DNA of 64,000 bases from Candidatus Tectimicrobiota bacterium (lineage in GTDB: Bacteria > UBA8248), in contig JACPUR010000035.1 of the NCBI GenBank assembly GCA_016192135.1, positions 95,056-159,055 on the forward strand, given 5' to 3'. The notes below the pieces were generated by a model. That model made no database searches. It worked only from the letters and a program-made list of their open reading frames with translations, and was not told the DNA's origin. Positions 7,072 through 32,085 of this stretch are shown here, one piece after another. Within the stretch, counting starts at the first letter, position 1; every line of letters starts with the position of its first letter. Position numbers and translations under genes: made by a program.

Positions 7072-8871
7072 ATGGAGGCGATATCCGCCCCCGCGGGATG
7101 GCTGGCGGACCGGGCGGCCCAATGGAGAAACGAGCCCGGCAAGTTCGCCGCGATGGCGCTGACGGCCTCGTTCCTGGCCGCCCTCATCGCCTACCCCTTC
7201 CTGACCCTTTTCGTCATGAGCCTTCAGCACCCGGAGACGGGCGCCTGGACGATCTCAAGCTACGTCCGCATCTTCACCGAGGAGAGCTTCCGGGACGCGT
7301 TCATCCGCTCGATCTGGCTCAGCCTCATCGTCACCTTCTTCTCGCTCATTCTCGGCATCCCCATGGCCTTCGGGGTCTCGCGCACGCGGATGCCCTTCCG
7401 GGAGCTCGTGCGAAGCCTCACCGGCATCGCCTTCATCATCCCGAGCTTCATCGGGGCGGTGGGCTGGATCTTCCTGCTCGGGGAGAACCAGGGGGACATC
7501 AACCGCTTGGTGCGCTGGATCGTCAACCCCTTCCTGGCGGAGCCGATCGAGAGCGGCCCCTTCACGGTCTTCTCCTTCTGGGGTTTGGCCTTCGTCCTGG
7601 TCCTGCATTTTTTCCCGTTCGTCTTCTATTCCGTGAGCGCCTCGCTCGACAACATGGACCCCTCCTACGAGGAGGCGGGGAGCATGGTGGGGGCGGGGAG
7701 GCTCCTGACCGTGCTGCGGATCACCCTCCCCATGGCGGCCCCCGCCATCGTGTCGGGCGCCATCATGGTCTTCCTGGAGACGCTGGCGGCGTTCGGCGCC
7801 CCCCAGGTCATCGGCGTTCCCGCCCGGTTTCACGTTCTGACGACGCGCATCTACAACCTGTTCGAGCCGCCGCCGAACTTCGCCATGGCGACGGCGCTGG
7901 CCTCTCCGCTCATCGTCATCACGGCGGGGGCGCTGTGGCTTCAGCGGCGCATCCTGTCCCGGCGGCAGTACGTGACGGTGGGCGGCAAGGCCACCGCCCC
8001 CGCGCCCATGGACATCGGGCGGTGGCGCTACGTCCTGAGCGGGTTCTCCATGCTCGTGGTGTTCGTCTCGGTGGGGGCGCCGATGTACGCCATCTTCGCC
8101 ACCTCCGTGACGGAGGTGTGGGGGCGGCCGCTCTTCACCGGGCTCTTCCCGCCGGCCGCCGGCGGCTTCTCCTTGACGCACTACGAGCAGCTCTTCGACC
8201 CCGCCCTGGCCAACTGCGATCTTCCCGGCGGCTACATCGTCACCGAGGCCATATGCGCCGTCTACAACAGCATGTGGCTCTCGGCGGTGGCGGCCACCCT
8301 CATCCTCCTGCTGGCGGTGGTGTCGGCCTACATCGTCGAGCGCTCGGGAATCGATGGGAGGGGCGCGCTGACCGGCCTCATCATGATGACCTTCGCCTTC
8401 CCCTCCGTGGCGCTGGCCGTGGGGCTCTACGTGGGCTACCTGAGGCTCGAGTGGCTGCCCGTCTTCGGCACCATGATGATGTTCATCCTGGCCTACATCA
8501 CGCGCTACATCGCCTTCGCCTTCATTTTCGTGCGGAATACGATGAAGCAGGTGGGCCCCGAGATGGAGGAGGCGGGCCGCATGGTGGGGGCGGGGTGGAC
8601 GCGGACCACCTGGAGCATCTCGGTGCCCCTGCTCAAGAGCGGCCTGTGGATCGGCTGGACGCTCGTCTTCGCCGTCCTGCTCCGTGAGCTGCCCCTCACC
8701 ATCATGCTGAACGTCCAGGGGGCGCAGACCATGGCGGTGCGCATCCTGCTTTTCATCGAGGACGGCCTCCTCGAGCGCGCCGCCGCGATGTGCATCATCA
8801 TCATCGTGGCCTCGGTCGGGGCGACGTGGCTCGTCCGGAGGTTCGCCGGGAAATCCGTAATGGAGGTGTGA
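7072..8871 (+). CDS. ABC transporter permease with duplicated transmembrane domain (FbpB-like)
   Basis: Two BPD-type permease modules of approx 300 aa each. EAA-like loops. Many TM helices. Confidence 0.8.
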   Translation: MEAISAPAGWLADRAAQWRNEPGKFAAMALTASFLAALIAYPFLTLFVMSLQHPETGAWTISSYVRIFTEESFRDAFIRSIWLSLIVTFFSLILGIPMAFGVSRTRMPFRELVRSLTGIAFIIPSFIGAVGWIFLLGENQGDINRLVRWIVNPFLAEPIESGPFTVFSFWGLAFVLVLHFFPFVFYSVSASLDNMDPSYEEAGSMVGAGRLLTVLRITLPMAAPAIVSGAIMVFLETLAAFGAPQVIGVPARFHVLTTRIYNLFEPPPNFAMATALASPLIVITAGALWLQRRILSRRQYVTVGGKATAPAPMDIGRWRYVLSGFSMLVVFVSVGAPMYAIFATSVTEVWGRPLFTGLFPPAAGGFSLTHYEQLFDPALANCDLPGGYIVTEAICAVYNSMWLSAVAATLILLLAVVSAYIVERSGIDGRGALTGLIMMTFAFPSVALAVGLYVGYLRLEWLPVFGTMMMFILAYITRYIAFAFIFVRNTMKQVGPEMEEAGRMVGAGWTRTTWSISVPLLKSGLWIGWTLVFAVLLRELPLTIMLNVQGAQTMAVRILLFIEDGLLERAAAMCIIIIVASVGATWLVRRFAGKSVMEV

Positions 8872-13214: not shown

Positions 13215-13384
13215 GACAGCCTCCTTGTGGATATGCGCGCGCCCGAGCCACTGGCCGGCTTATGAGCGCCAATCTTGGCACGCACGCACGCTTCTGCCAA
13301 GCCTCCCGGCCTGTTCAGGCGCCCGGCCAGGAGGCGTATGATGGTTCCCGGAGGCGTCCGCCCGGACGCCCGAAAGGAGGCTGC

Positions 13385-13945
13385 ATGCAATCGCCGGAAA
13401 TGACGGGTCCCGAGGGTCCCGCCCCCGAGATACGGTTCGAGGACGGCGGGGGAAGCCCCGTTCCGCTCTCCTCGCTGTGGAAGCAGGGACCCCTCGCGCT
13501 CGTCTTCATGCGCCACCTGGGGTGAATTTTCTGCCGGGAGCAGGTGGCGCAGTTGCGCCGCGCGTGGCCGCTGTTCCAGGACAAGAAGATCCGGGTGGTC
13601 GCCGTGAGCCCGGCGGAGGGGGCCGCCGCCGAGGCGGTGTGCGGGATGCTGGGCTCTCCCTTCATCTGCCTGGGGGATCCGGCCGGAAAGGCATACGACG
13701 CCTTCGGCCTCGTTCAGGCCGAGGTCTCGCAGTTGATTAACTTCCGCACCTTCTCGCGCGGCCTCTGGGCCATGCTGCGCGGGCACAGACATGGCCAGAC
13801 CATCGGCGACCGCTCGCGCCTGCCGGGCGCCTTCATCATCGACGGGGAGGGGACGATCCGCTGGGGGCGCCGGGGGCGGGATGCGGCCGATCATCCCACG
13901 GCGCAGGACCTGCTCAACGCCTGGGATGGGATCCAGCGGGCGTGA
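13385..13945 (+). CDS. thioredoxin-fold redoxin (AhpC/TSA-like) with an in-frame TGA at 13523-13525, candidate selenoprotein (UxxC)
   Basis: ATG 13385 after AAAGGAGG. The N-terminal redoxin pattern (PVPLSSLWKQGPLALVFMRHLG) is followed by TGA and then (IFCREQVAQLRRAWPLFQDKKIRVVAVSP), so the stop sits exactly at the first Cys position of the CxxC redox motif. The reading frame stays open and family-like to 13945. Reading as two separate ORFs would split the domain. Confidence 0.5.
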
Positions 13946-14984
13946 GGAGGGGCGCCGCTAGCTTCTCGGGCCGTCCCACCGTATGCAGCGGGACCGGTTC
14001 GGGGCAGGGGGGGAGGGCCCCGTATCCGCCCGGAGAGCATCCGCGGCGCAGCGCGGCCACCACCCGGCGCTCCAGGAATTCCACCAGATAGCTCACCGCC
14101 TGCTGGCCGGGCGAGGGGTCCAGGCTGAACATGAAGTCGTGGTTCGCCCGGGGGAGAAGCACCAGGTCGGCCGGGATGTTCCTCTCCCGGAGCGCCCCAT
14201 GATATTCCCGCGCCTGCTGATAGGGGATCCAGGCGTCCCTCCGCCCATGGAGGAGAAGGACGGGGGAACGGACCTTCCCGATGAGGGCCTGCGGGTCCTG
14301 CCGGGCGAACCACTGGTGCCAGAGCCGGCCATCCTCGTCGGCGAAATAGTAGGAGAGCCGGATGTCCCAGGTGTCCATGAGGGGCCGGAAGCGATAGCCG
14401 CCGTAGAAGGAGACGATGCCCGCCACCTTCCCCGGCCGCCGCGCGGCCACCTGAAAGGCGTAGCTCCCTCCCAGGCTGAAGCCGACGAGCGTCACCCCGC
14501 CCCCCTCGCAGCGCGGGTGCGCCGCCAGGGTGTCCACCCCGCGGGCCATGTCCTCGAGCAGGAAATGGAAGCGCTCGACCCGCTCGGGAAAGGGGCGCAT
14601 CCCTTCCTTCAGGTTCACCATCCGGGCCGAATAATAGTTAATGTAGAGGACGCCGTACCCCAACCGGGCCAGCTGCAGGGCGTAAGGCCGGTAGGACCGC
14701 CAGAAGCCGATCTGCCCGTGCAGGAAGAGCAGGCAGGGGCTCTTGGCGGGCGCCGAGGCCCCGGCAGGAAGGGCCATGTAGCCCTCGATGGGCAAGCCGT
14801 CCGGGCTGGCGTAGCGGAAGGGCTGCAATTCCCCTTCATGCCGGGGCGGGGGAGGCAGCTTGACGTTCCCGGCCGGCGGAAACAGCGCGCACCCTCCGGC
14901 GAGAAGCAGGGCGGCCAGGAGGGCCGGCCGGTGGCCCCCACTGCGCTTCCAGGGAGTGCGCGGTGCGTTCGCTCGGATTGTCAA
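13914..14984 (-). CDS. alpha/beta hydrolase (dienelactone hydrolase/esterase-like) lipoprotein
   Basis: Signal peptide plus lipobox (LLLAGGC). (GFSLGG) nucleophile elbow. Conserved D and H downstream. Confidence 0.65.
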   Translation of the reverse strand: MTIRANAPRTPWKRSGGHRPALLAALLLAGGCALFPPAGNVKLPPPPRHEGELQPFRYASPDGLPIEGYMALPAGASAPAKSPCLLFLHGQIGFWRSYRPYALQLARLGYGVLYINYYSARMVNLKEGMRPFPERVERFHFLLEDMARGVDTLAAHPRCEGGGVTLVGFSLGGSYAFQVAARRPGKVAGIVSFYGGYRFRPLMDTWDIRLSYYFADEDGRLWHQWFARQDPQALIGKVRSPVLLLHGRRDAWIPYQQAREYHGALRERNIPADLVLLPRANHDFMFSLDPSPGQQAVSYLVEFLERRVVAALRRGCSPGGYGALPPCPEPVPLHTVGRPEKLAAPLLTPAGSHPRR

Positions 14985-25711: not shown

Positions 25712-27256
25712 ATGCGATTTTCCGTTGCGTCGGGCGACGGATGGTCCCAGGGCACCGACGCGATCATCCTTCCCATCGCCGAGAAGGCGAAGAACGACCG
25801 CCTCGACAAGGCGCTCGGCGGCGCGCTCTCCGCGCTGGCCCGGCGCGGCGTGTTCGAGGGCAAGGCCGGCCAGGTGCACGCCCTGCGGGTCCCCTCGCGC
25901 GGGGGCAGGCGCGGGCCCGAGGTGGCGGTGCTGGCCGGACTGGGGAAGGCCGGGGAGGCGACGCAGGAGACGGTCCGCCGCGCCCTGGGCTCGGCCGGCA
26001 GGCGCGCCCGGAGCGAGGGTGCCCGGAGCGTGGCCGTTTCCCTGGACGGCGCGGTGGGCGGAGGTCTGGGGGCGGAGGAGGCCGCCCGGGCGGCGGCGGA
26101 GGGGCTGGCGCTCGGCCTCTACCGGATGGAGCGCTTCAAGGGCGCGAAGAGCCGGGAGAAGCTCGCCAAGGAGCGCATGGAGCGGGCCGTCCTCTGCGGC
26201 GGAAGGGGCATCTCCCGGTCCGCCATGAGCCGGGGGATGCGGCTCGGGCAGATCCTGGCCGAGGGCACGGCCGTGGCGCGCGACCTGGTGAACACCCCGA
26301 GCAACGAGAAGCGCCCGCCCGACCTCGCCGCCGAGGTGCGGCGCATCGCGCGCAAGGCGGGGCTCAGGTGCACCGTCCTGGACGGCCGCCAGCTCGCCAG
26401 GCTCAAGATGGGGGCCCTCCTGGCCGTCGCGCGCGGGAGCTCCGCCCCGGCCCGCGTGTTCGTCCTGGAATACCGGCCCGGCCGGAGCTCGTCCAGGCCC
26501 ATCGCGTTCGTGGGGAAGGGCGTCACCTTCGACACGGGGGGCATCTCCATCAAGCCCAGCTCGGGCCTCGAGCTCATGACCACCGACATGAGCGGAGCGG
26601 CCGCCGTGGTGGGGGCCATGGTCTGCGTCGCGCGCCTCAAGCCCCGGGTGCCCGTCGTCGGAGTGGGGGCCCTGGTCGAGAACATGCTGGGCGCGGACGC
26701 CACCCGCCCCGGCGACATCGTGCGCGCCATGAGCGGCACCACCGTCGAGATCCACAACACCGACGCCGAGGGGAGGCTCGTCCTGGCCGACGCCCTCCAC
26801 TACACCAAGACGCGCTTTAAGCCCCAGTGCATGATCGACCTCGCCACCCTGACCGGGGCCTGCGTCGTGGCCCTGGGCGAAAAGCTCACGGGGCTCTACG
26901 CCACCCACGACGAGATGCGGGAGCGCATGATGCGGCTCGGGGAGGAGACGGGGGATAGGCTGTGGCACATGCCCCTCTACCCCGAGTTCGGCGACATGAT
27001 GAAGGGAAAGCTCGCCGATCTCTGCAACATCTCCGGAGGGCGCTACGGCGGGGCGAACACGGCGGCGGCCTTCCTCCAGCATTTCGCCGAGGGCACCCCC
27101 TGGGTCCACCTCGACATCGCGGGCCCGGCCCACACCTCGAAGGAGGAGCCCTACCGCCCCGCCGGGGGCACCGGGGTGGGGGTGCGGCTCCTGGCCGAGC
27201 TCGCCCGCACCTGGACCAGCCTCCCCAAGCAGAAGGGCAAGGCCTTCGGGACGTGA
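25712..27256 (+). CDS. pepA: leucyl aminopeptidase (M17)
   Basis: ATG 25712 after GGAGAG. (NTDAEGRL) M17 signature and C-terminal catalytic domain. The ORF-track upstream extension is rejected. Confidence 0.85.
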   Translation: MRFSVASGDGWSQGTDAIILPIAEKAKNDRLDKALGGALSALARRGVFEGKAGQVHALRVPSRGGRRGPEVAVLAGLGKAGEATQETVRRALGSAGRRARSEGARSVAVSLDGAVGGGLGAEEAARAAAEGLALGLYRMERFKGAKSREKLAKERMERAVLCGGRGISRSAMSRGMRLGQILAEGTAVARDLVNTPSNEKRPPDLAAEVRRIARKAGLRCTVLDGRQLARLKMGALLAVARGSSAPARVFVLEYRPGRSSSRPIAFVGKGVTFDTGGISIKPSSGLELMTTDMSGAAAVVGAMVCVARLKPRVPVVGVGALVENMLGADATRPGDIVRAMSGTTVEIHNTDAEGRLVLADALHYTKTRFKPQCMIDLATLTGACVVALGEKLTGLYATHDEMRERMMRLGEETGDRLWHMPLYPEFGDMMKGKLADLCNISGGRYGGANTAAAFLQHFAEGTPWVHLDIAGPAHTSKEEPYRPAGGTGVGVRLLAELARTWTSLPKQKGKAFGT

Positions 27257-27270
27257 GGGGGGAAAAATGT

Positions 27271-27340
27271 AGGGGCGACCGGCCGGTCGCCCCTACAGAC
27301 GTGAAGAGCCATTGATTTCCTGTAGGGGCGGTTCGTGAAC
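27271..27340. repeat. REP family 2 doublet (GTAGGGGCG...CGCCCCTAC x2)
   Basis: TAGGGGCGACCGGCCGGTCGCCCCTAC and GTAGGGGCGGTTCGTGAACCGCCCCTAC, between convergent genes. Confidence 0.55.
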
Positions 27341-27363
27341 CGCCCCTACTTCTTTCGCTTGCC

Positions 27364-27462
27364 CGATGCTTGTCATTCCGAACGAAGCGCGGGATCTACG
27401 TTTCACGCCACTCGCGAAGATTCCTTCGTCGCTGCGCTCCCTCGGAATGACATGGTGCCATT
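27364..27462. repeat. approx 100-nt palindromic MITE-like element
   Basis: Terminal inverted repeats GTCATTCCGAACGAAGCG ... CGCTCCCTCGGAATGAC. Confidence 0.4.
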
Positions 27463-27471
27463 GTTGAAAAA

Positions 27472-28383
27472 TTACCTCCCCTTGATCGTCCGCGCCCTTG
27501 CCAGCACCCTCTCGGCGTGCTTGGCCATGGCCACGTCCACCATCTTCCCCTTGTAGGTCACGGCGCCCAGGCCCGCCTTCGTGCCTTCCCCGAGGGCCTG
27601 CATCATCCCCTCGTAGTAGTCCACCTCGGCCGGGCTGGGGGAGAAGACCTCGTTGAAGATGGCGATCTGCTTGGGGTGGATGGCCGCCTTGCCGGTGTAG
27701 CCCAACTGCCTGGCGAGGGCGGCGTCGGCCCGGCAGCCCGCCTCGTCGTCGAGCCGCATGTAGACGCCGTCCGTGGGGTGGGGCATCCCCGCCGCGCGGG
27801 CGTCCGTCAGGGCCTTGCTGCGGGCGTAGAGGAGGGTGACGCCGTCCGGGGACCAGGTGGCGCCCAGGTCCCGGCAGAGGTCGGCGTCCTCGGCGCTGCC
27901 GAAGTTGATGCCCACCACGCGCGGGACGGCCGTGCACATCTCGTAGCAGTTGACCACTCCCTTGGCGCTCTCGATCTGGAGGATAATCCCGATGCCCCCC
28001 GCCTCGAGGCTCCGGTCCTTCTCCAACCGGGTGAGGATGGCGTCCGCCGTCCGGGCGTCGGCCGCGCTCTCGGGCTTGGGGAGGAAGATGGCGTCCAGGC
28101 CCGCGACGGCGACGGCCTCCAGGTCCTTCTCCAGCATTCCGGTTTCGACCGCGTTCACCCGCACCAGGGTGGTGAGGGGGGCGCCGGGGGCCTTCTTGAG
28201 CCCGGGGATGGCCTGGGCCACGAGCTCGCGGGCCTTCTGCTTCTGGGCCGGGGCGACCGAGTCCTCCAGGTCGTAGAGGGCCCCGTCGGCGCCCGAGGAG
28301 GGGGCCTTGGCGACCATCTTCTCGTTGCTGCCGGGGGTGAAGAGCATGGAGCGGAGCGGCGTGGTGACGAGGGGTCGTGCCAT
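27472..28383 (-). CDS. HpcH/HpaI-CitE family acyl-CoA lyase (citryl/malyl/citramalyl-CoA lyase-like)
   Basis: ATG 28383. (SMLFTPG ... LEDSVAP ... ILQIESAKG ... FGSAEDADLCRDLG) CitE motifs. Last gene of the E1alpha-E1beta-E2 operon. Confidence 0.75.
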   Translation of the reverse strand: MARPLVTTPLRSMLFTPGSNEKMVAKAPSSGADGALYDLEDSVAPAQKQKARELVAQAIPGLKKAPGAPLTTLVRVNAVETGMLEKDLEAVAVAGLDAIFLPKPESAADARTADAILTRLEKDRSLEAGGIGIILQIESAKGVVNCYEMCTAVPRVVGINFGSAEDADLCRDLGATWSPDGVTLLYARSKALTDARAAGMPHPTDGVYMRLDDEAGCRADAALARQLGYTGKAAIHPKQIAIFNEVFSPSPAEVDYYEGMMQALGEGTKAGLGAVTYKGKMVDVAMAKHAERVLARARTIKGR

Positions 28384-28388
28384 GAGGA

Positions 28389-29741
28389 TTAAGACTCCAA
28401 ATGAGAGAGATCCATCCCTTCGAGCGCGCTGCGGACGGCGGCGGCGAAGCGGCCCGCCGCCATGCCGTCGTTCGCCCGGTGGTCGAACGACAACGAGAGC
28501 GTCATCAGGGGAAGGAGGCCGATCCCTCCGCCGGGCAGGGCCGCCGCGCGCGGCGCGATCAGGCCCGTCCCGATGATGGCCGCCTCGGGCGGGTTGAGGA
28601 GGGGGATGCCCCCCCGGGCCCCCGAGGCGCCGAAGTTGGTGAGGGTGAGAGTGCCGCCCCCCATGTCGTCGGGGGTGAGCCCCCCCGAGCGGGCGCGGGC
28701 GCCCAGGCCGTCGACCGCCCGGACGAGGTCCACGAAGCCCATCCGGTCGATCTCCCGCAGGACGGGTACCACGAGCCCCTCGGGCGTGTCCACGGCGATC
28801 CCGAGGTTGACGTAGCGCGCCACGTGCAGCTCGTCCCCCTCGAAGCGGGCGTTCAGCCGCGCGTGGGCGGGGTCGCGCAGGGCGTGGACGATGGCCAGGG
28901 CGAGGAAGGGCGTGTAGCTGAGCGAGGCCCCGTGCCCCTCCCGGAAGCGCTCCTTGTGGGCCTCGCGCCAGGCGGCGATGCGGCTCATGTCCACGTCCAT
29001 CCACAGGCTCGCCTGGGGGATAGCCGCCGAGCGCGAGAGGTTCTCGGCGATGCGCCGGCGGAGGCGGGTCAGGGGCTCCCGCCGCTCACGGGGCTTCCCT
29101 TCCTCCGCCAGGGGGCGGAAGAGGAGCCTCACCGAGGGCGCGGCGGAGCCCCCCGCCTCGATGAAGCGCTCCACGTCCCGCGCCGTCACCCGGCCCCCCG
29201 CCCCCGTGCCGGGGAGGCCGAGGATCGTCCCCAGCGGGATGCCGTGCTCCGCCGCGAGGCGCTGCACGCGGGGGGAGAGCCATTTTCCTTGGCTATCGGG
29301 CGCCGCTTGCCGCGCTTGGGGAGCGGCGGGCCTCGACGGGGCGGGGGACACGGCGGGGGCTTGGCGCGGCGGGAGCGGGGCCACGGGGGCCACCCAGTCC
29401 CCCTCCGGCTGCTTGGGGGGGCCGGAGGCTTTCGGTGCGGCGCCTCCGGCCGGGGCCTTCGGCGCGGGGGAGGTCTCGGGAGGCGCGTCGGGGATCTCTT
29501 CTTCCGTTTCCAGCAGGGCGAGCACCTCGCCCACCGGGACGGTGGCGTCCGGAGCGACCAGGACCTCCTTCAGCACCCCGTCCGCCGGGCTCTCGACCTC
29601 GAACTCCACCTTATCGCTCTCGGCGGAGAGGAGAGGCTCTCCCTTCGCCACGCGATCTCCCGCCGCCTTCTTCCACTCGACCACGGTGCTCTCGTGAACG
29701 CTCGTGCCCATGCGCGGCATGCGGATGCGGGCGATGGGCAT
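28389..29741 (-). CDS. 2-oxoacid dehydrogenase E2 component (dihydrolipoamide acyltransferase)
   Basis: Lipoyl domain (SAESDKVEFEVESPADGVL), PSBD, catalytic domain (SFDHRANDG). ATG 29741 after AGGTGGAG. Confidence 0.8.
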   Translation of the reverse strand: MPIARIRMPRMGTSVHESTVVEWKKAAGDRVAKGEPLLSAESDKVEFEVESPADGVLKEVLVAPDATVPVGEVLALLETEEEIPDAPPETSPAPKAPAGGAAPKASGPPKQPEGDWVAPVAPLPPRQAPAVSPAPSRPAAPQARQAAPDSQGKWLSPRVQRLAAEHGIPLGTILGLPGTGAGGRVTARDVERFIEAGGSAAPSVRLLFRPLAEEGKPRERREPLTRLRRRIAENLSRSAAIPQASLWMDVDMSRIAAWREAHKERFREGHGASLSYTPFLALAIVHALRDPAHARLNARFEGDELHVARYVNLGIAVDTPEGLVVPVLREIDRMGFVDLVRAVDGLGARARSGGLTPDDMGGGTLTLTNFGASGARGGIPLLNPPEAAIIGTGLIAPRAAALPGGGIGLLPLMTLSLSFDHRANDGMAAGRFAAAVRSALEGMDLSHLES

Positions 29742-29841
29742 GGGGGGCTCCACCTTTTCGCAAATCGGGCGATAGGGCCGAGGGAGACTGCCTCCGGCGC
29801 GCCGGGGCGCCTTACTCGCAGGGGTGCATCCGCCGATTTCC

Positions 29842-29870
29842 CGCAGGGGCGGTTCGCGAACCGCCCCTCC
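29842..29870. repeat. REP family 2 unit inside the E1beta-E2 intercistronic region
   Basis: GCAGGGGCGGTTCGCGAACCGCCCCTCC. Confidence 0.5.
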
Positions 29871-29926
29871 GAAAAGCGCCTCGCGCCTCGCGTGCGCCCG
29901 TTTGCCCGCCGCCCGGCCATGCGCCG

Positions 29927-30925
29927 CTAGAACGCGGCCAGTTCCCGGAGCGCCCCGACGACCTGGGCGGTGCCGGGGAGATACGCCTTCTCGAGCGGCG
30001 GGCTGAGGGGCACGGGGCAGTCCGGCGCGCCGACGCGGCGGATGGGGGCGTCCAGGTGCTCGAACACCTCCTCCGCGATGAGCGCGGCGATCTCTCCGCC
30101 GACCCCGCCCCTCTTGCGGGCCTCGTGGAGGATGAGGAGCTTGCCCGTCTTCTTCACGCTCCGGAGGATGGCCTCCTTGTCCATGGGGACGAGGGTGCGA
30201 AGGTCGATGACCTCGGCCGAGACGCCCTCCCTCTCCAGCACCTGGGCGGCCTCGAGGGCCTCGAGGACGCTGGTCCCGAAGGTGAGGAGGGTCAGATCTT
30301 CGCCCTCGCGCAGGGTGCGCGCCTGGCCGAAGGGCACGGTGTAGTCGCCCTCCGGAACGTCGATCTGGAGCTGGGGAGGGAGATCCGCCGGCCGGTAGTT
30401 GTAGAACTTCTTGTACTCCATGAAGATGACGGGATTGTCGTCCCGGATGGCCTGCTTGAGCATCCCCTTGGCGTCGTAGGCGGTGGCCGGGGCGACTATC
30501 TTCAAGCCGGGCGTGCCGAAGAACCAGCTCTCGGGATTCACGCTGTGGTAAGGGCCCCCGCTCACGAGAGCCGCCGAGGGGAGGCGCAGGACGATGGGGA
30601 CGGGGCCCATCCGCCGGTAGTGGTTCCCGGCGGCGAAGTCCACGATCATCTTGAAGGCCTCGGTCACGAAGTCCGCGAACTGGTACTCCACCACGGGCCG
30701 CATCCCCGCCAGGGCGGCGCCGATGGCGGCGCCGGTGAAGCCGGCCTCGCTCAAGGGGGCGTCCACCACCCGGTCGCGCCCGAAGTGCTGCTGGAATCCC
30801 TTGGTGATGTAGAAGGCGCCCCCGCCCAGGCCGATGTCCTCCCCGACGAGGAATACCCGCTCGTCGCGCTCCATCTCCTCCCAGAGCGCGGCGCTCAAGG
30901 CCTCCCGGTAGGTGATGAGGCTCAT
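29927..30925 (-). CDS. 2-oxoacid dehydrogenase E1 component beta subunit
   Basis: ATG 30925 overlapping the alpha-subunit stop (ATGA). Transketolase-like pyrimidine-binding and C-terminal domains. Confidence 0.85.
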   Translation of the reverse strand: MSLITYREALSAALWEEMERDERVFLVGEDIGLGGGAFYITKGFQQHFGRDRVVDAPLSEAGFTGAAIGAALAGMRPVVEYQFADFVTEAFKMIVDFAAGNHYRRMGPVPIVLRLPSAALVSGGPYHSVNPESWFFGTPGLKIVAPATAYDAKGMLKQAIRDDNPVIFMEYKKFYNYRPADLPPQLQIDVPEGDYTVPFGQARTLREGEDLTLLTFGTSVLEALEAAQVLEREGVSAEVIDLRTLVPMDKEAILRSVKKTGKLLILHEARKRGGVGGEIAALIAEEVFEHLDAPIRRVGAPDCPVPLSPPLEKAYLPGTAQVVGALRELAAF

Positions 30926-32085
30926 TCGGCGAACACTCCCTCCGCCACCTTGGCGGGATCGGGGAAGGGGAGCTTGAGGGCGGTGTCCCGTGCCTCCTCC
31001 GCCTCCCGGCGGGCCCGGGCGTGGGAGGCGGCGATCTCCTCGGGCGTCAGCACCTCGTACTCGATCAGGTACTGGTCGAAGCGCTTGATCGGGTCGCGCT
31101 TCTCCTGCCAGAGCTTGAACTTCTCCATGTCCACGTAGTCGGTGAAGCGGTCGTAGACCGAGTGCCCGCCCAGCCGCATGGTGACGCTCTCGATGAGGGT
31201 GGGGCCCCCGCCCCGGCGGGCGCGCTCGAGGGCCCGGGAGACGACCTCGCGGACCAGGAGCACGTCCGTGCCGTCGATGAGGAAGCCGGGCACCCCGTAG
31301 CCGGACGCCCGGAGGGCCAGGGCGGGGCAGGCGTACTGGTCCGAGAGGGGGGTCTTGTAGGCGTACTGGTTGTTGTCGATCACGACGGCGAGGGGGAACT
31401 TCCGCACCGCCGCGAAGTTCATGGCCTCGTGGAAGTCCCCCGAGCTGGTGCCGCCGTCCCCGATGTAGGTGAGGACGGCCTGCCCATTCCGCTGGAGCTT
31501 GGCCGCCCAGGCGATGCCCGCCGCGATGGGGACCATGGTGCCGATGTGGCTGATGAGCTGGGTGATCTTCTTGGGCCGGTAGCCCATGTGGAAGTTGCCG
31601 TCGCGGCCTTCGGAGGGCCCGCCGGCCCGGCCGAAGAAATGGGCCATGATGCTGACGGGGGGGTGGCCCTTGGCGAGGTGGGCCCCGCAGTTGCGGTGCA
31701 TCGGGACGAGCCATTCCTCCTCCCGCAGGCAGGAGGCGCTCCCCACGCCGGCCGCCTCGTTGCCCCGGCTGAAGAAGGCGGTGCCCGGGACGTGCCCGGA
31801 GCGGAAGGCGGAGTCGAGCGTCTCCTCGACGGCGCGGGTCAGGGAGAGGAGGTGGTGGAGGCGGAGGGCGTCCGGTTTCCCGGGCCTCAGGTCCTCGCGC
31901 TGGATGGGGACCCAGCGCGCCTCCAGGCCCTCGATGGAGAGGTAGCGGTCCGCGAGGTCGCGAAAGAAGTCCAGCCCGGCGAGCTCCTCGCTCCGGACCG
32001 GCTCGCTCGCGGCGTTCTGGATTTTGGCCCGCATGGCGCCATCCCTATGTGCGTGGCTGCGAGCTGCGGTAGGACTTCCCCCCAT
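30922..32085 (-). CDS. 2-oxoacid dehydrogenase E1 component alpha subunit (TPP-dependent)
   Basis: TPP motif (GDGGTSSGDFHEAMNFAA). Start uncertain (ATG 32085 or 32034). Confidence 0.8.
   Translation of the reverse strand: MGGSPTAARSHAHRDGAMRAKIQNAASEPVRSEELAGLDFFRDLADRYLSIEGLEARWVPIQREDLRPGKPDALRLHHLLSLTRAVEETLDSAFRSGHVPGTAFFSRGNEAAGVGSASCLREEEWLVPMHRNCGAHLAKGHPPVSIMAHFFGRAGGPSEGRDGNFHMGYRPKKITQLISHIGTMVPIAAGIAWAAKLQRNGQAVLTYIGDGGTSSGDFHEAMNFAAVRKFPLAVVIDNNQYAYKTPLSDQYACPALALRASGYGVPGFLIDGTDVLLVREVVSRALERARRGGGPTLIESVTMRLGGHSVYDRFTDYVDMEKFKLWQEKRDPIKRFDQYLIEYEVLTPEEIAASHARARREAEEARDTALKLPFPDPAKVAEGVFAE

Follow-up and report, generated by a model that had tools for sequence, protein, structure and literature searches.

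The locus at 13385-13945 raises the question of whether a redoxin reading frame that is interrupted by an in-frame TGA encodes one protein or two and, if it encodes one, how the TGA is read. It lies in a stretch of DNA of 64,000 nucleotides, which is referred to below as the window. The frame runs from the ATG at 13385 to a TGA stop at 13943-13945, and its 187 codons contain one internal stop, the TGA at 13523-13525, in the context ...LALVFMRHLG-*-IFCREQVAQLRR.... The start codon aligns with M-[QHN]-x-PE, the conserved N-terminus of the orthologs described below. An earlier note on this DNA had described the frame as open and family-like around this single TGA, which is borne out by the translation and by the Pfam and NCBIfam matches. 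It had also pointed to a Shine-Dalgarno sequence at the 5' ORF, and this was indeed found just upstream of the ATG (AAAGGAGG, Table 1). Judged from sequence comparisons, the locus very probably encodes one Prx-like / SelL-related redoxin in which the UGA is decoded as selenocysteine (Sec). The correct gene model is then most likely a single selenoprotein of 186 residues, where the current annotation has an orphan ORF of 46 residues followed by a "redoxin domain-containing protein" of 130.

The last 32 nt of the redoxin gene (13914-13945) are shared with the 3' end of a convergent dienelactone-hydrolase-like gene on the opposite strand (13914-14984), the product of which matches Pfam DLH. With a divergent cyclase gene on one side and this convergent hydrolase gene on the other, the redoxin gene stands by itself, so that the gene context is uninformative on function.

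Table 1. Features of the redoxin locus, in window coordinates.
Feature	Position	Strand	Basis
Complete CDS, thioredoxin-fold redoxin of 186 residues (Prx-like / SelL-related), proposed Sec at residue 47	13385..13945	+	Translation, PF00578, NF040769, orthologs
Shine-Dalgarno sequence AAAGGAGG, 4 nt before the ATG	13373..13380	+	Read from sequence
In-frame UGA, proposed Sec codon, U47 of the U-I-F-C motif	13523..13525	+	TGA in orthologs, Cys in homologs
TGC codon, Cys50, second residue of UxxC, proposed resolving cysteine	13532..13534	+	Column invariant in alignment A1
SECIS-type hairpin, 7-bp stem (13544-13550/13555-13561), apical loop AGUU (13551-13554)	13544..13561	+	
Genuine TGA stop of the redoxin gene	13943..13945	+	

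The family to which the protein belongs was established by translating the TGA as Cys, a homology search that the earlier note had suggested. This gave matches to Pfam AhpC-TSA (PF00578; E 1.2e-14, 54.7 bits against a gathering threshold of 26), to Pfam Redoxin (E 1.6e-9) and to NCBIfam NF040769, "SelL-related redox protein" (E 8.4e-40, 136.2 bits against a curated cutoff of 120), the last covering model positions 2-172 of 173. PF13911 (AhpC-TSA_2), which is recorded for most homologs, fell slightly under its cutoff for the window redoxin (25.7 against 27).

A search of 5.8 billion proteins yielded 18 relatives. Of these, the eight with the highest identity (59-99%) are fragments 115-133 aa long, all starting after the TGA position; they come from Candidatus Tectomicrobia and Nitrospinota MAGs, where they carry the name "redoxin domain-containing protein" or "hypothetical protein". 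The other ten are full-length and remote (32-45% identity), and all ten carry Cys at the TGA column, in RH[LF]G-C-IFC[RQ]E. For this count, alignment A1 was judged on the ten full-length Cys-form rows, while the eight Sec-form rows had been entered with Cys and were not counted. The column of Cys50 is equivalent to the position of the peroxidatic Cys in peroxiredoxins. When a member of the largest clade served as the query of a second protein search, the matches at 55-82% identity covered only 54-75% of the query, none of them being named a selenoprotein, and the full-length matches were 43-60% identical. Cys occupies the Sec site in 39 of the 40 full-length forms checked. The TGA therefore lies, as the earlier note had it, at the first Cys of a CxxC motif. 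In one homolog, P0034, the Sec/Cys position is taken by Arg (RHFG-R-LFCREQ); a CGA codon there would differ from TGA by a single base. CxxS replaces CxxC in three Cys forms (P0070, P0079 and P0131), which is reminiscent of the UxxS selenoprotein of cd02970 in the 2026 inventory of prokaryotic selenoprotein families.

The DNA behind the fragments contains eight distinct orthologs, 54-75% identical to the window protein. Each has one TGA in frame at this codon, preceded by ~46 codons of conserved N-terminal sequence. The upstream order M42 peptidase, cyclase, redoxin is found in six of these eight, the contigs of the other two being too short or different. The identical TGA is also present in six independent assemblies of the window sequence. 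Beyond these, searching metagenome DNA with the TGA-containing pattern R-[HQ]-[LF]-G-TGA-x-F-C-R-E-[QH] gave at least 120 stretches; among the matches listed, all are open on either side of the TGA, and 60 complete genes fall into at least 44 clusters below 60% identity. Because the same TGA recurs in six assemblies and in more than 100 orthologs, the UGA is neither a chance occurrence nor a sequencing error. The earlier note had held that the two halves make no sense apart and had proposed to look for Cys in orthologs. Both points stood up, in that close homologs are annotated as C-terminal fragments but keep the N-terminal part and the TGA itself in their DNA, and Cys appears in the remote full-length homologs. 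Selenoprotein families classically show such a pattern of Sec and Cys homologs, which effectively excludes that the locus is a pseudogene, that it results from misassembly or that it consists of two independent genes.

Some Sec-form genes are much longer than that in the window. At 28 loci among the matches listed (L103, L111, L120, L123, L139, L145, L159, L170, L176 and others), the frame runs ~460-480 residues past the UGA. Database fragments of such long genes carry short-chain dehydrogenase (SDR) domains (PF00106, PF13561, PF08659) behind AhpC-TSA_2, which suggests that the long genes encode a selenoredoxin fused to an SDR.

Sec insertion in bacteria depends on a SECIS hairpin downstream of the UGA, and the earlier note had proposed a GC hairpin as a possible part of one. 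This hairpin is real, although the coordinates given for it were off by one, GGCGCAGUUGCGCC being located at 13546-13559. According to published criteria (PMC13188914, Fig. 2), a bSECIS has an upper stem of 4-16 bp capped by an apical loop of 3-9 nt, a G in loop position 1 or 2 that is usually followed by G or U, a spacing of 16-37 nt between UGA and apical loop, and a free energy of -7.5 kcal/mol or lower. The window hairpin falls within these values on all four counts: a 4-nt loop on a 7-bp stem, a G at loop position 2 followed by U, a spacing of 25 nt (13526-13550, counted from the sequence) and a free energy of -13.9 kcal/mol, which was reached by 2 of 200 shuffles. The wider fold of 13520-13600 that the earlier note had recommended was not significant on its own for this 81-nt window (z -0.66). 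The support for the hairpin therefore comes from the comparison with related sequences and not from the fold of this single sequence.

This comparison was based on an alignment (A2) of 118 distinct Sec-form sequences that is gapless from the TGA. In A2, 90% of the pair cells are formed, all seven pairs are present in 79 of the 118 sequences, and at least six of the seven in 97. Two-sided changes occur at all seven pairs and amount to 102 cells, against 32.7 +/- 3.9 in shuffled alignments, none of 500 shuffles reaching 102. When the 3' partners were slid by 1-3 columns as a control, pairing fell to 20-55%. Unguided prediction with RNAalifold returned six of the seven pairs. As for the loop, 94 of the 118 Sec forms have AGUU and another 7 have AGGU.

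As a control set we used 80 Cys-form genes from species genomes, found with a Cys-only peptide pattern. In these Cys forms only 46% of the hairpin is paired, at least six of the seven pairs are present in one of the 80, the loop is AGUU in five, and the mean free energy is -2.9 kcal/mol as compared to -11.3 kcal/mol for the Sec forms. The difference persists where the peptide is the same: all 68 Sec forms with the peptide AQLR encode it as GCG-CAG-UUG-CG[CU], with 6-7 pairs, whereas the Cys forms with AQLR (n = 7) use mixed codons and form only 2-4 pairs. Conversely, pairing is kept across changes of amino acid, with Ala...Arg (GCG...CGC) alternating with Val...His (GUG...CAC), Thr...Arg (ACG...CGU) and Ala...Cys (GCA...UGC), and the closing pair of the hairpin flips in GGCGG...CCGCC. 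Since both the comparison of Sec with Cys forms and the matched-peptide control reveal these differences, the hairpin is under selection as RNA, and only together with the UGA codon. The suggestion in the earlier note that it might act as a bacterial SECIS thus gained support from the G-U in the 4-nt loop, the distance of 25 nt from the UGA, the covariation and the restriction to Sec forms.

The AGUU hairpin at +21 to +38 is not universal among the Sec forms. Thirteen of the 118 (L098, L099, L101, L114, L118, L133, L150, L156, L158, L166, L193, L205 and L208) form fewer than five of its seven pairs and have other folds, mostly with G-containing loops; in these alternatives, the register is shifted and the loop is GUU, or else GAGCAG-GNU-CUGCUC forms closer to the UGA. 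The RH[LF]G-U-xFCRE redoxin family may thus use more than one SECIS solution. Two alternative hairpins in the window were also considered and rejected: GCAGC-UGGCGCA-GUUGC (13540-13556), which has lost its closing pair both in the window and in L010, and a small hairpin at 13531-13543, which occupies near-invariant coding positions and has zero covariation. Among the alternatives considered, RNAalifold backs only the AGUU hairpin. A scan of the whole window against Rfam at gathering thresholds gave no match, and a scan of the coding frames of the window for a UGA plus hairpin returned the redoxin gene as the only candidate.

How UGA is read elsewhere in the organism can be judged from the window itself. 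TGA is the most frequent stop there, ending 28 of the 42 called ORFs, and UGA is therefore an ordinary stop codon in this organism. Other same-frame TGA junctions in the window (at 8869, 57786, 61650 and 21946) are ordinary gene boundaries. The Sec machinery itself was not found in the DNA searched: ARAGORN detected no tRNA-Sec, and no tRNA at all, in the 64-kb window; a Pfam scan of the 20 largest previously unassigned ORFs of the window gave no SelA, SelB or SelD domains, these ORFs being transport, amino-acid and central-metabolism genes; and tblastn with E. coli SelA, SelB and SelD gave no hits, either in the window or in related loci totalling 1.2 Mb. Within 27256-30922 (~3.6 kb), adjoining an E1 dehydrogenase gene on the reverse strand (30922-32085), zero ORFs pass a codon-position G+C filter, a crude filter that may miss genes.

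A second thioredoxin-fold gene interrupted by TGA is located 2.5 kb away from the redoxin ortholog on a related, syntenic contig (L013:7594-8295, and likewise L014:2771-3427 and L015:2771-3427). Its TGA stands in ...LEFGAIT-TGA-PPFRRQ..., its product is deiodinase-like (NF038285, 108 bits, below cutoff), and it has a hairpin with an AGGU loop that starts 16 nt past the UGA. This gene, which has no counterpart in the window, probably encodes another selenoprotein in a related organism, and we count it in support of Sec decoding of the redoxin UGA. For the wider group, a paper on Entotheonella (Tectomicrobia) lends indirect support to the presence of Sec machinery, as it mentions homologs of SelA and SelB, but within a biosynthetic cluster, and the supplements of ISME 2016 make no mention of Entotheonella, Tectomicrobia or Nitrospina.

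Several other explanations of the interrupted frame have to be weighed against Sec decoding. It is extremely improbable that the gene is a pseudogene, or that an ordinary CxxC redoxin gene shows the TGA only through an error of sequencing or assembly (TGC or TGT becoming TGA). A single base change would indeed turn the Cys codon into TGA, and annotators called the downstream fragment only, but the TGA is shared by the six assemblies, the eight orthologs and the more than 100 metagenome genes, in which both halves are conserved without other stops or frameshifts. Moreover, the N-terminal 46 codons show no sign of neutral drift, and the Sec-specific hairpin is kept by compensatory changes. The locus might instead consist of two genes, one for a 46-residue peptide that ends at the TGA and one for a C-terminal protein of ~130 residues that starts from a downstream TTG or GTG, and this is exactly the split that gene callers make in every assembly. 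We nonetheless consider two genes highly unlikely: the starts of the fragments vary among orthologs, being TTG or ATG at different residues or right after the stop, a protein made from the fragment would start beyond the first beta strands of the fold and beyond its redox motif, and the full-length Cys homologs are single polypeptides.

The remaining explanations concern the hairpin and the inserted residue. Cys forms with an identical peptide lack the hairpin, the 68 Sec forms fix four codons including the rare UUG, and amino-acid changes are coupled such that pairing persists. It is thus very improbable that the hairpin is a mere by-product of the conserved peptide (V/A)AQLR(D/R) and high G+C without a role in decoding, even though it sits within conserved coding sequence and the surrounding 81 nt of one sequence fold no better than shuffles. 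The UGA could also be recoded as something other than Sec, either as Cys, by a tRNA(Sec)-like tRNA-Cys together with a SelB-type factor, or as Trp or Gly by reassignment. tRNA(Sec)-like tRNAs that insert Cys have been described, and a SECIS-type hairpin would equally serve SelB-dependent insertion of Cys. The failure to find Sec machinery in the 64-kb window and the 1.2 Mb of related loci is compatible with this. Against it, the predominance of TGA among the stops of the window excludes a general reassignment, the homologs carry Cys and not Trp or Gly at the UGA column, and a costly UGA and SECIS for Cys, where TGC suffices, would be a rare exception only. Recoding as another residue is therefore unlikely. 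Overall, the conservation of the TGA and of the frame, the hairpin and the use of TGA as the usual stop make a pseudogene, a sequencing error, a split gene and a reassigned code very unlikely.

If the UGA is decoded as Sec, as we favor, then by analogy with the bacterial Sec pathway a complex of SelB, GTP and Sec-tRNA(Sec) would bind the hairpin at its AGUU loop. The UGA, 25 nt upstream of the loop, would at that point be in the ribosomal A site, and Sec would be inserted instead of translation being terminated.

The fold of the product was studied by means of its relatives. The best solved relative by family profile is human prostamide/PGF synthase (PRXL2B, 9us9), which matches over the full length (E 1.2e-9), followed by ResA and by 1-Cys or Q-type peroxiredoxins. 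The nearest full-length Cys homolog, P0007, was modeled as a stand-in for the window protein (pLDDT 95.5). In this model, the first motif Cys (C40) is predicted to lie directly before the first long helix (residues 41-51) and after a strand (residues 30-34). The attacking residue of thioredoxin-fold enzymes is usually located right before such a helix. The model superposes on Prx, ResA and PGFS structures, with the best TM-score (0.73/0.79, rmsd 2.7) on 9usa. In the remote homologs the first motif position is stricter than the second, as illustrated by the CxxS forms, which fits the first position as the catalytic residue. From this model and the motif we infer that the product is a selenol/thiol oxidoreductase. 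Sec47 would be an exposed nucleophile that attacks an oxidized substrate such as a peroxide, an endoperoxide or a disulfide, Cys50 would resolve the intermediate via a selenenylsulfide, and the latter would then be reduced by a thioredoxin-type reductant.

The hundreds of database entries of this redoxin family that are cut short at the Sec codon illustrate how public annotation routinely splits bacterial selenoproteins of this kind in two. In public databases, the Sec forms of the RH[LF]G-U-xFCRE redoxins are represented almost only by truncated fragments, and neither this subfamily nor NF040769 is named among the 119 families of the 2026 inventory. Tentatively, the RH[LF]G-U-xFCRE redoxins could constitute a large and diverse selenoprotein subfamily that was not separately described before, a possibility that we regard as rather doubtful. 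If it were true, a nearly invariant SECIS with an AGUU tetraloop would visibly constrain the protein sequence, Ala...Arg changing to Val...His in step, and the window gene would document the use of Sec in a lineage of Tectomicrobia/Nitrospinota type. Sec decoding of the redoxin UGA also predicts that the source organism, which is labelled Candidatus Tectomicrobia, requires selenium and has a functional Sec pathway. The 118 Sec-form and 80 Cys-form genes make up an unusually clean natural data set on a SECIS inside a coding sequence, in which the SECIS fixes synonymous codons and couples amino-acid substitutions, and the set can be used for training or benchmarking selenoprotein gene finders.

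From the Sargasso and GOS surveys onward, selenoproteins of the Prx-like UxxC kind have ranked among the most abundant ones predicted in bacteria, and GOS listed 225 sequences of "Prx-like 1" (pfam00578, UxxC). In the 2026 inventory of 119 prokaryotic families, the Prx-like thiol:disulfide oxidoreductase (PF00578, UxxC/UxxU) is "predicted with high confidence", and the "Peroxiredoxin-like family protein (cd02970; UxxS)" and the "Redoxin family protein (PF08534; UxxC)" are listed as well. The window gene shares with the Prx-like UxxC selenoproteins the Prx-like fold, PF00578, a UxxC motif with Sec first, a majority of Cys homologs and a SECIS inside the coding sequence. The Prx-like family (representative WP_010940744.1) is likened here by description, and the window gene differs from it in having a motif of PRX_like2 / SelL-related type, RH[LF]G-U-xFCRE. 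The GOS supplementary files searched do not contain FCREQ, FCREH or RHFGU. The cd02970 selenoprotein, also compared by description, resembles the window protein in being of the broad Prx-like-2 type with Sec first, and CxxS occurs among the Cys forms of the window family, but its motif is UxxS, while that of the window gene is UxxC. The canonical peroxiredoxin motif is PxxxTxxU/C. The window protein instead reads R-H-L-G-U-I-F-C, with Sec at the position of Thr and Arg at that of Pro.

SelL is a Prx-like selenoprotein of fish, invertebrates and marine bacteria. The likeness of the window protein to SelL is based on its score against NF040769 (136.2 versus 120), SelL itself being compared by description. 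SelL proper has two Sec residues in UxxU that form a diselenide, whereas the window gene has one TGA and one TGC, giving UxxC, and is thus not a SelL proper. PRXL2B (PDB 9us9 and 9usa) is akin to the window protein in that its RRFG-C-VVCR aligns to RHLG-U-IFCRE and that it gives the top TM-score for the P0007 model. It differs in being a eukaryotic Cys enzyme of ~19% identity, with a prostaglandin endoperoxide substrate that has no known bacterial counterpart.

Like the SECIS of E. coli fdhF, which is decoded by SelB, the window hairpin lies within the coding sequence immediately 3' of the UGA, and in its small apical loop G is followed by U. The two differ in sequence, and no bulged U was identified in the window hairpin. 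Its loop presumably lies later (25 nt) than that of fdhF, at a spacing within the published range. What the redoxin finding leaves unchanged is the knowledge of the Sec mechanism itself, and a selenoprotein specialist would not be surprised by it. Both the Prx-like UxxC kind of selenoprotein and the standard Sec mechanism are known already, and what is new is a mis-annotated member.
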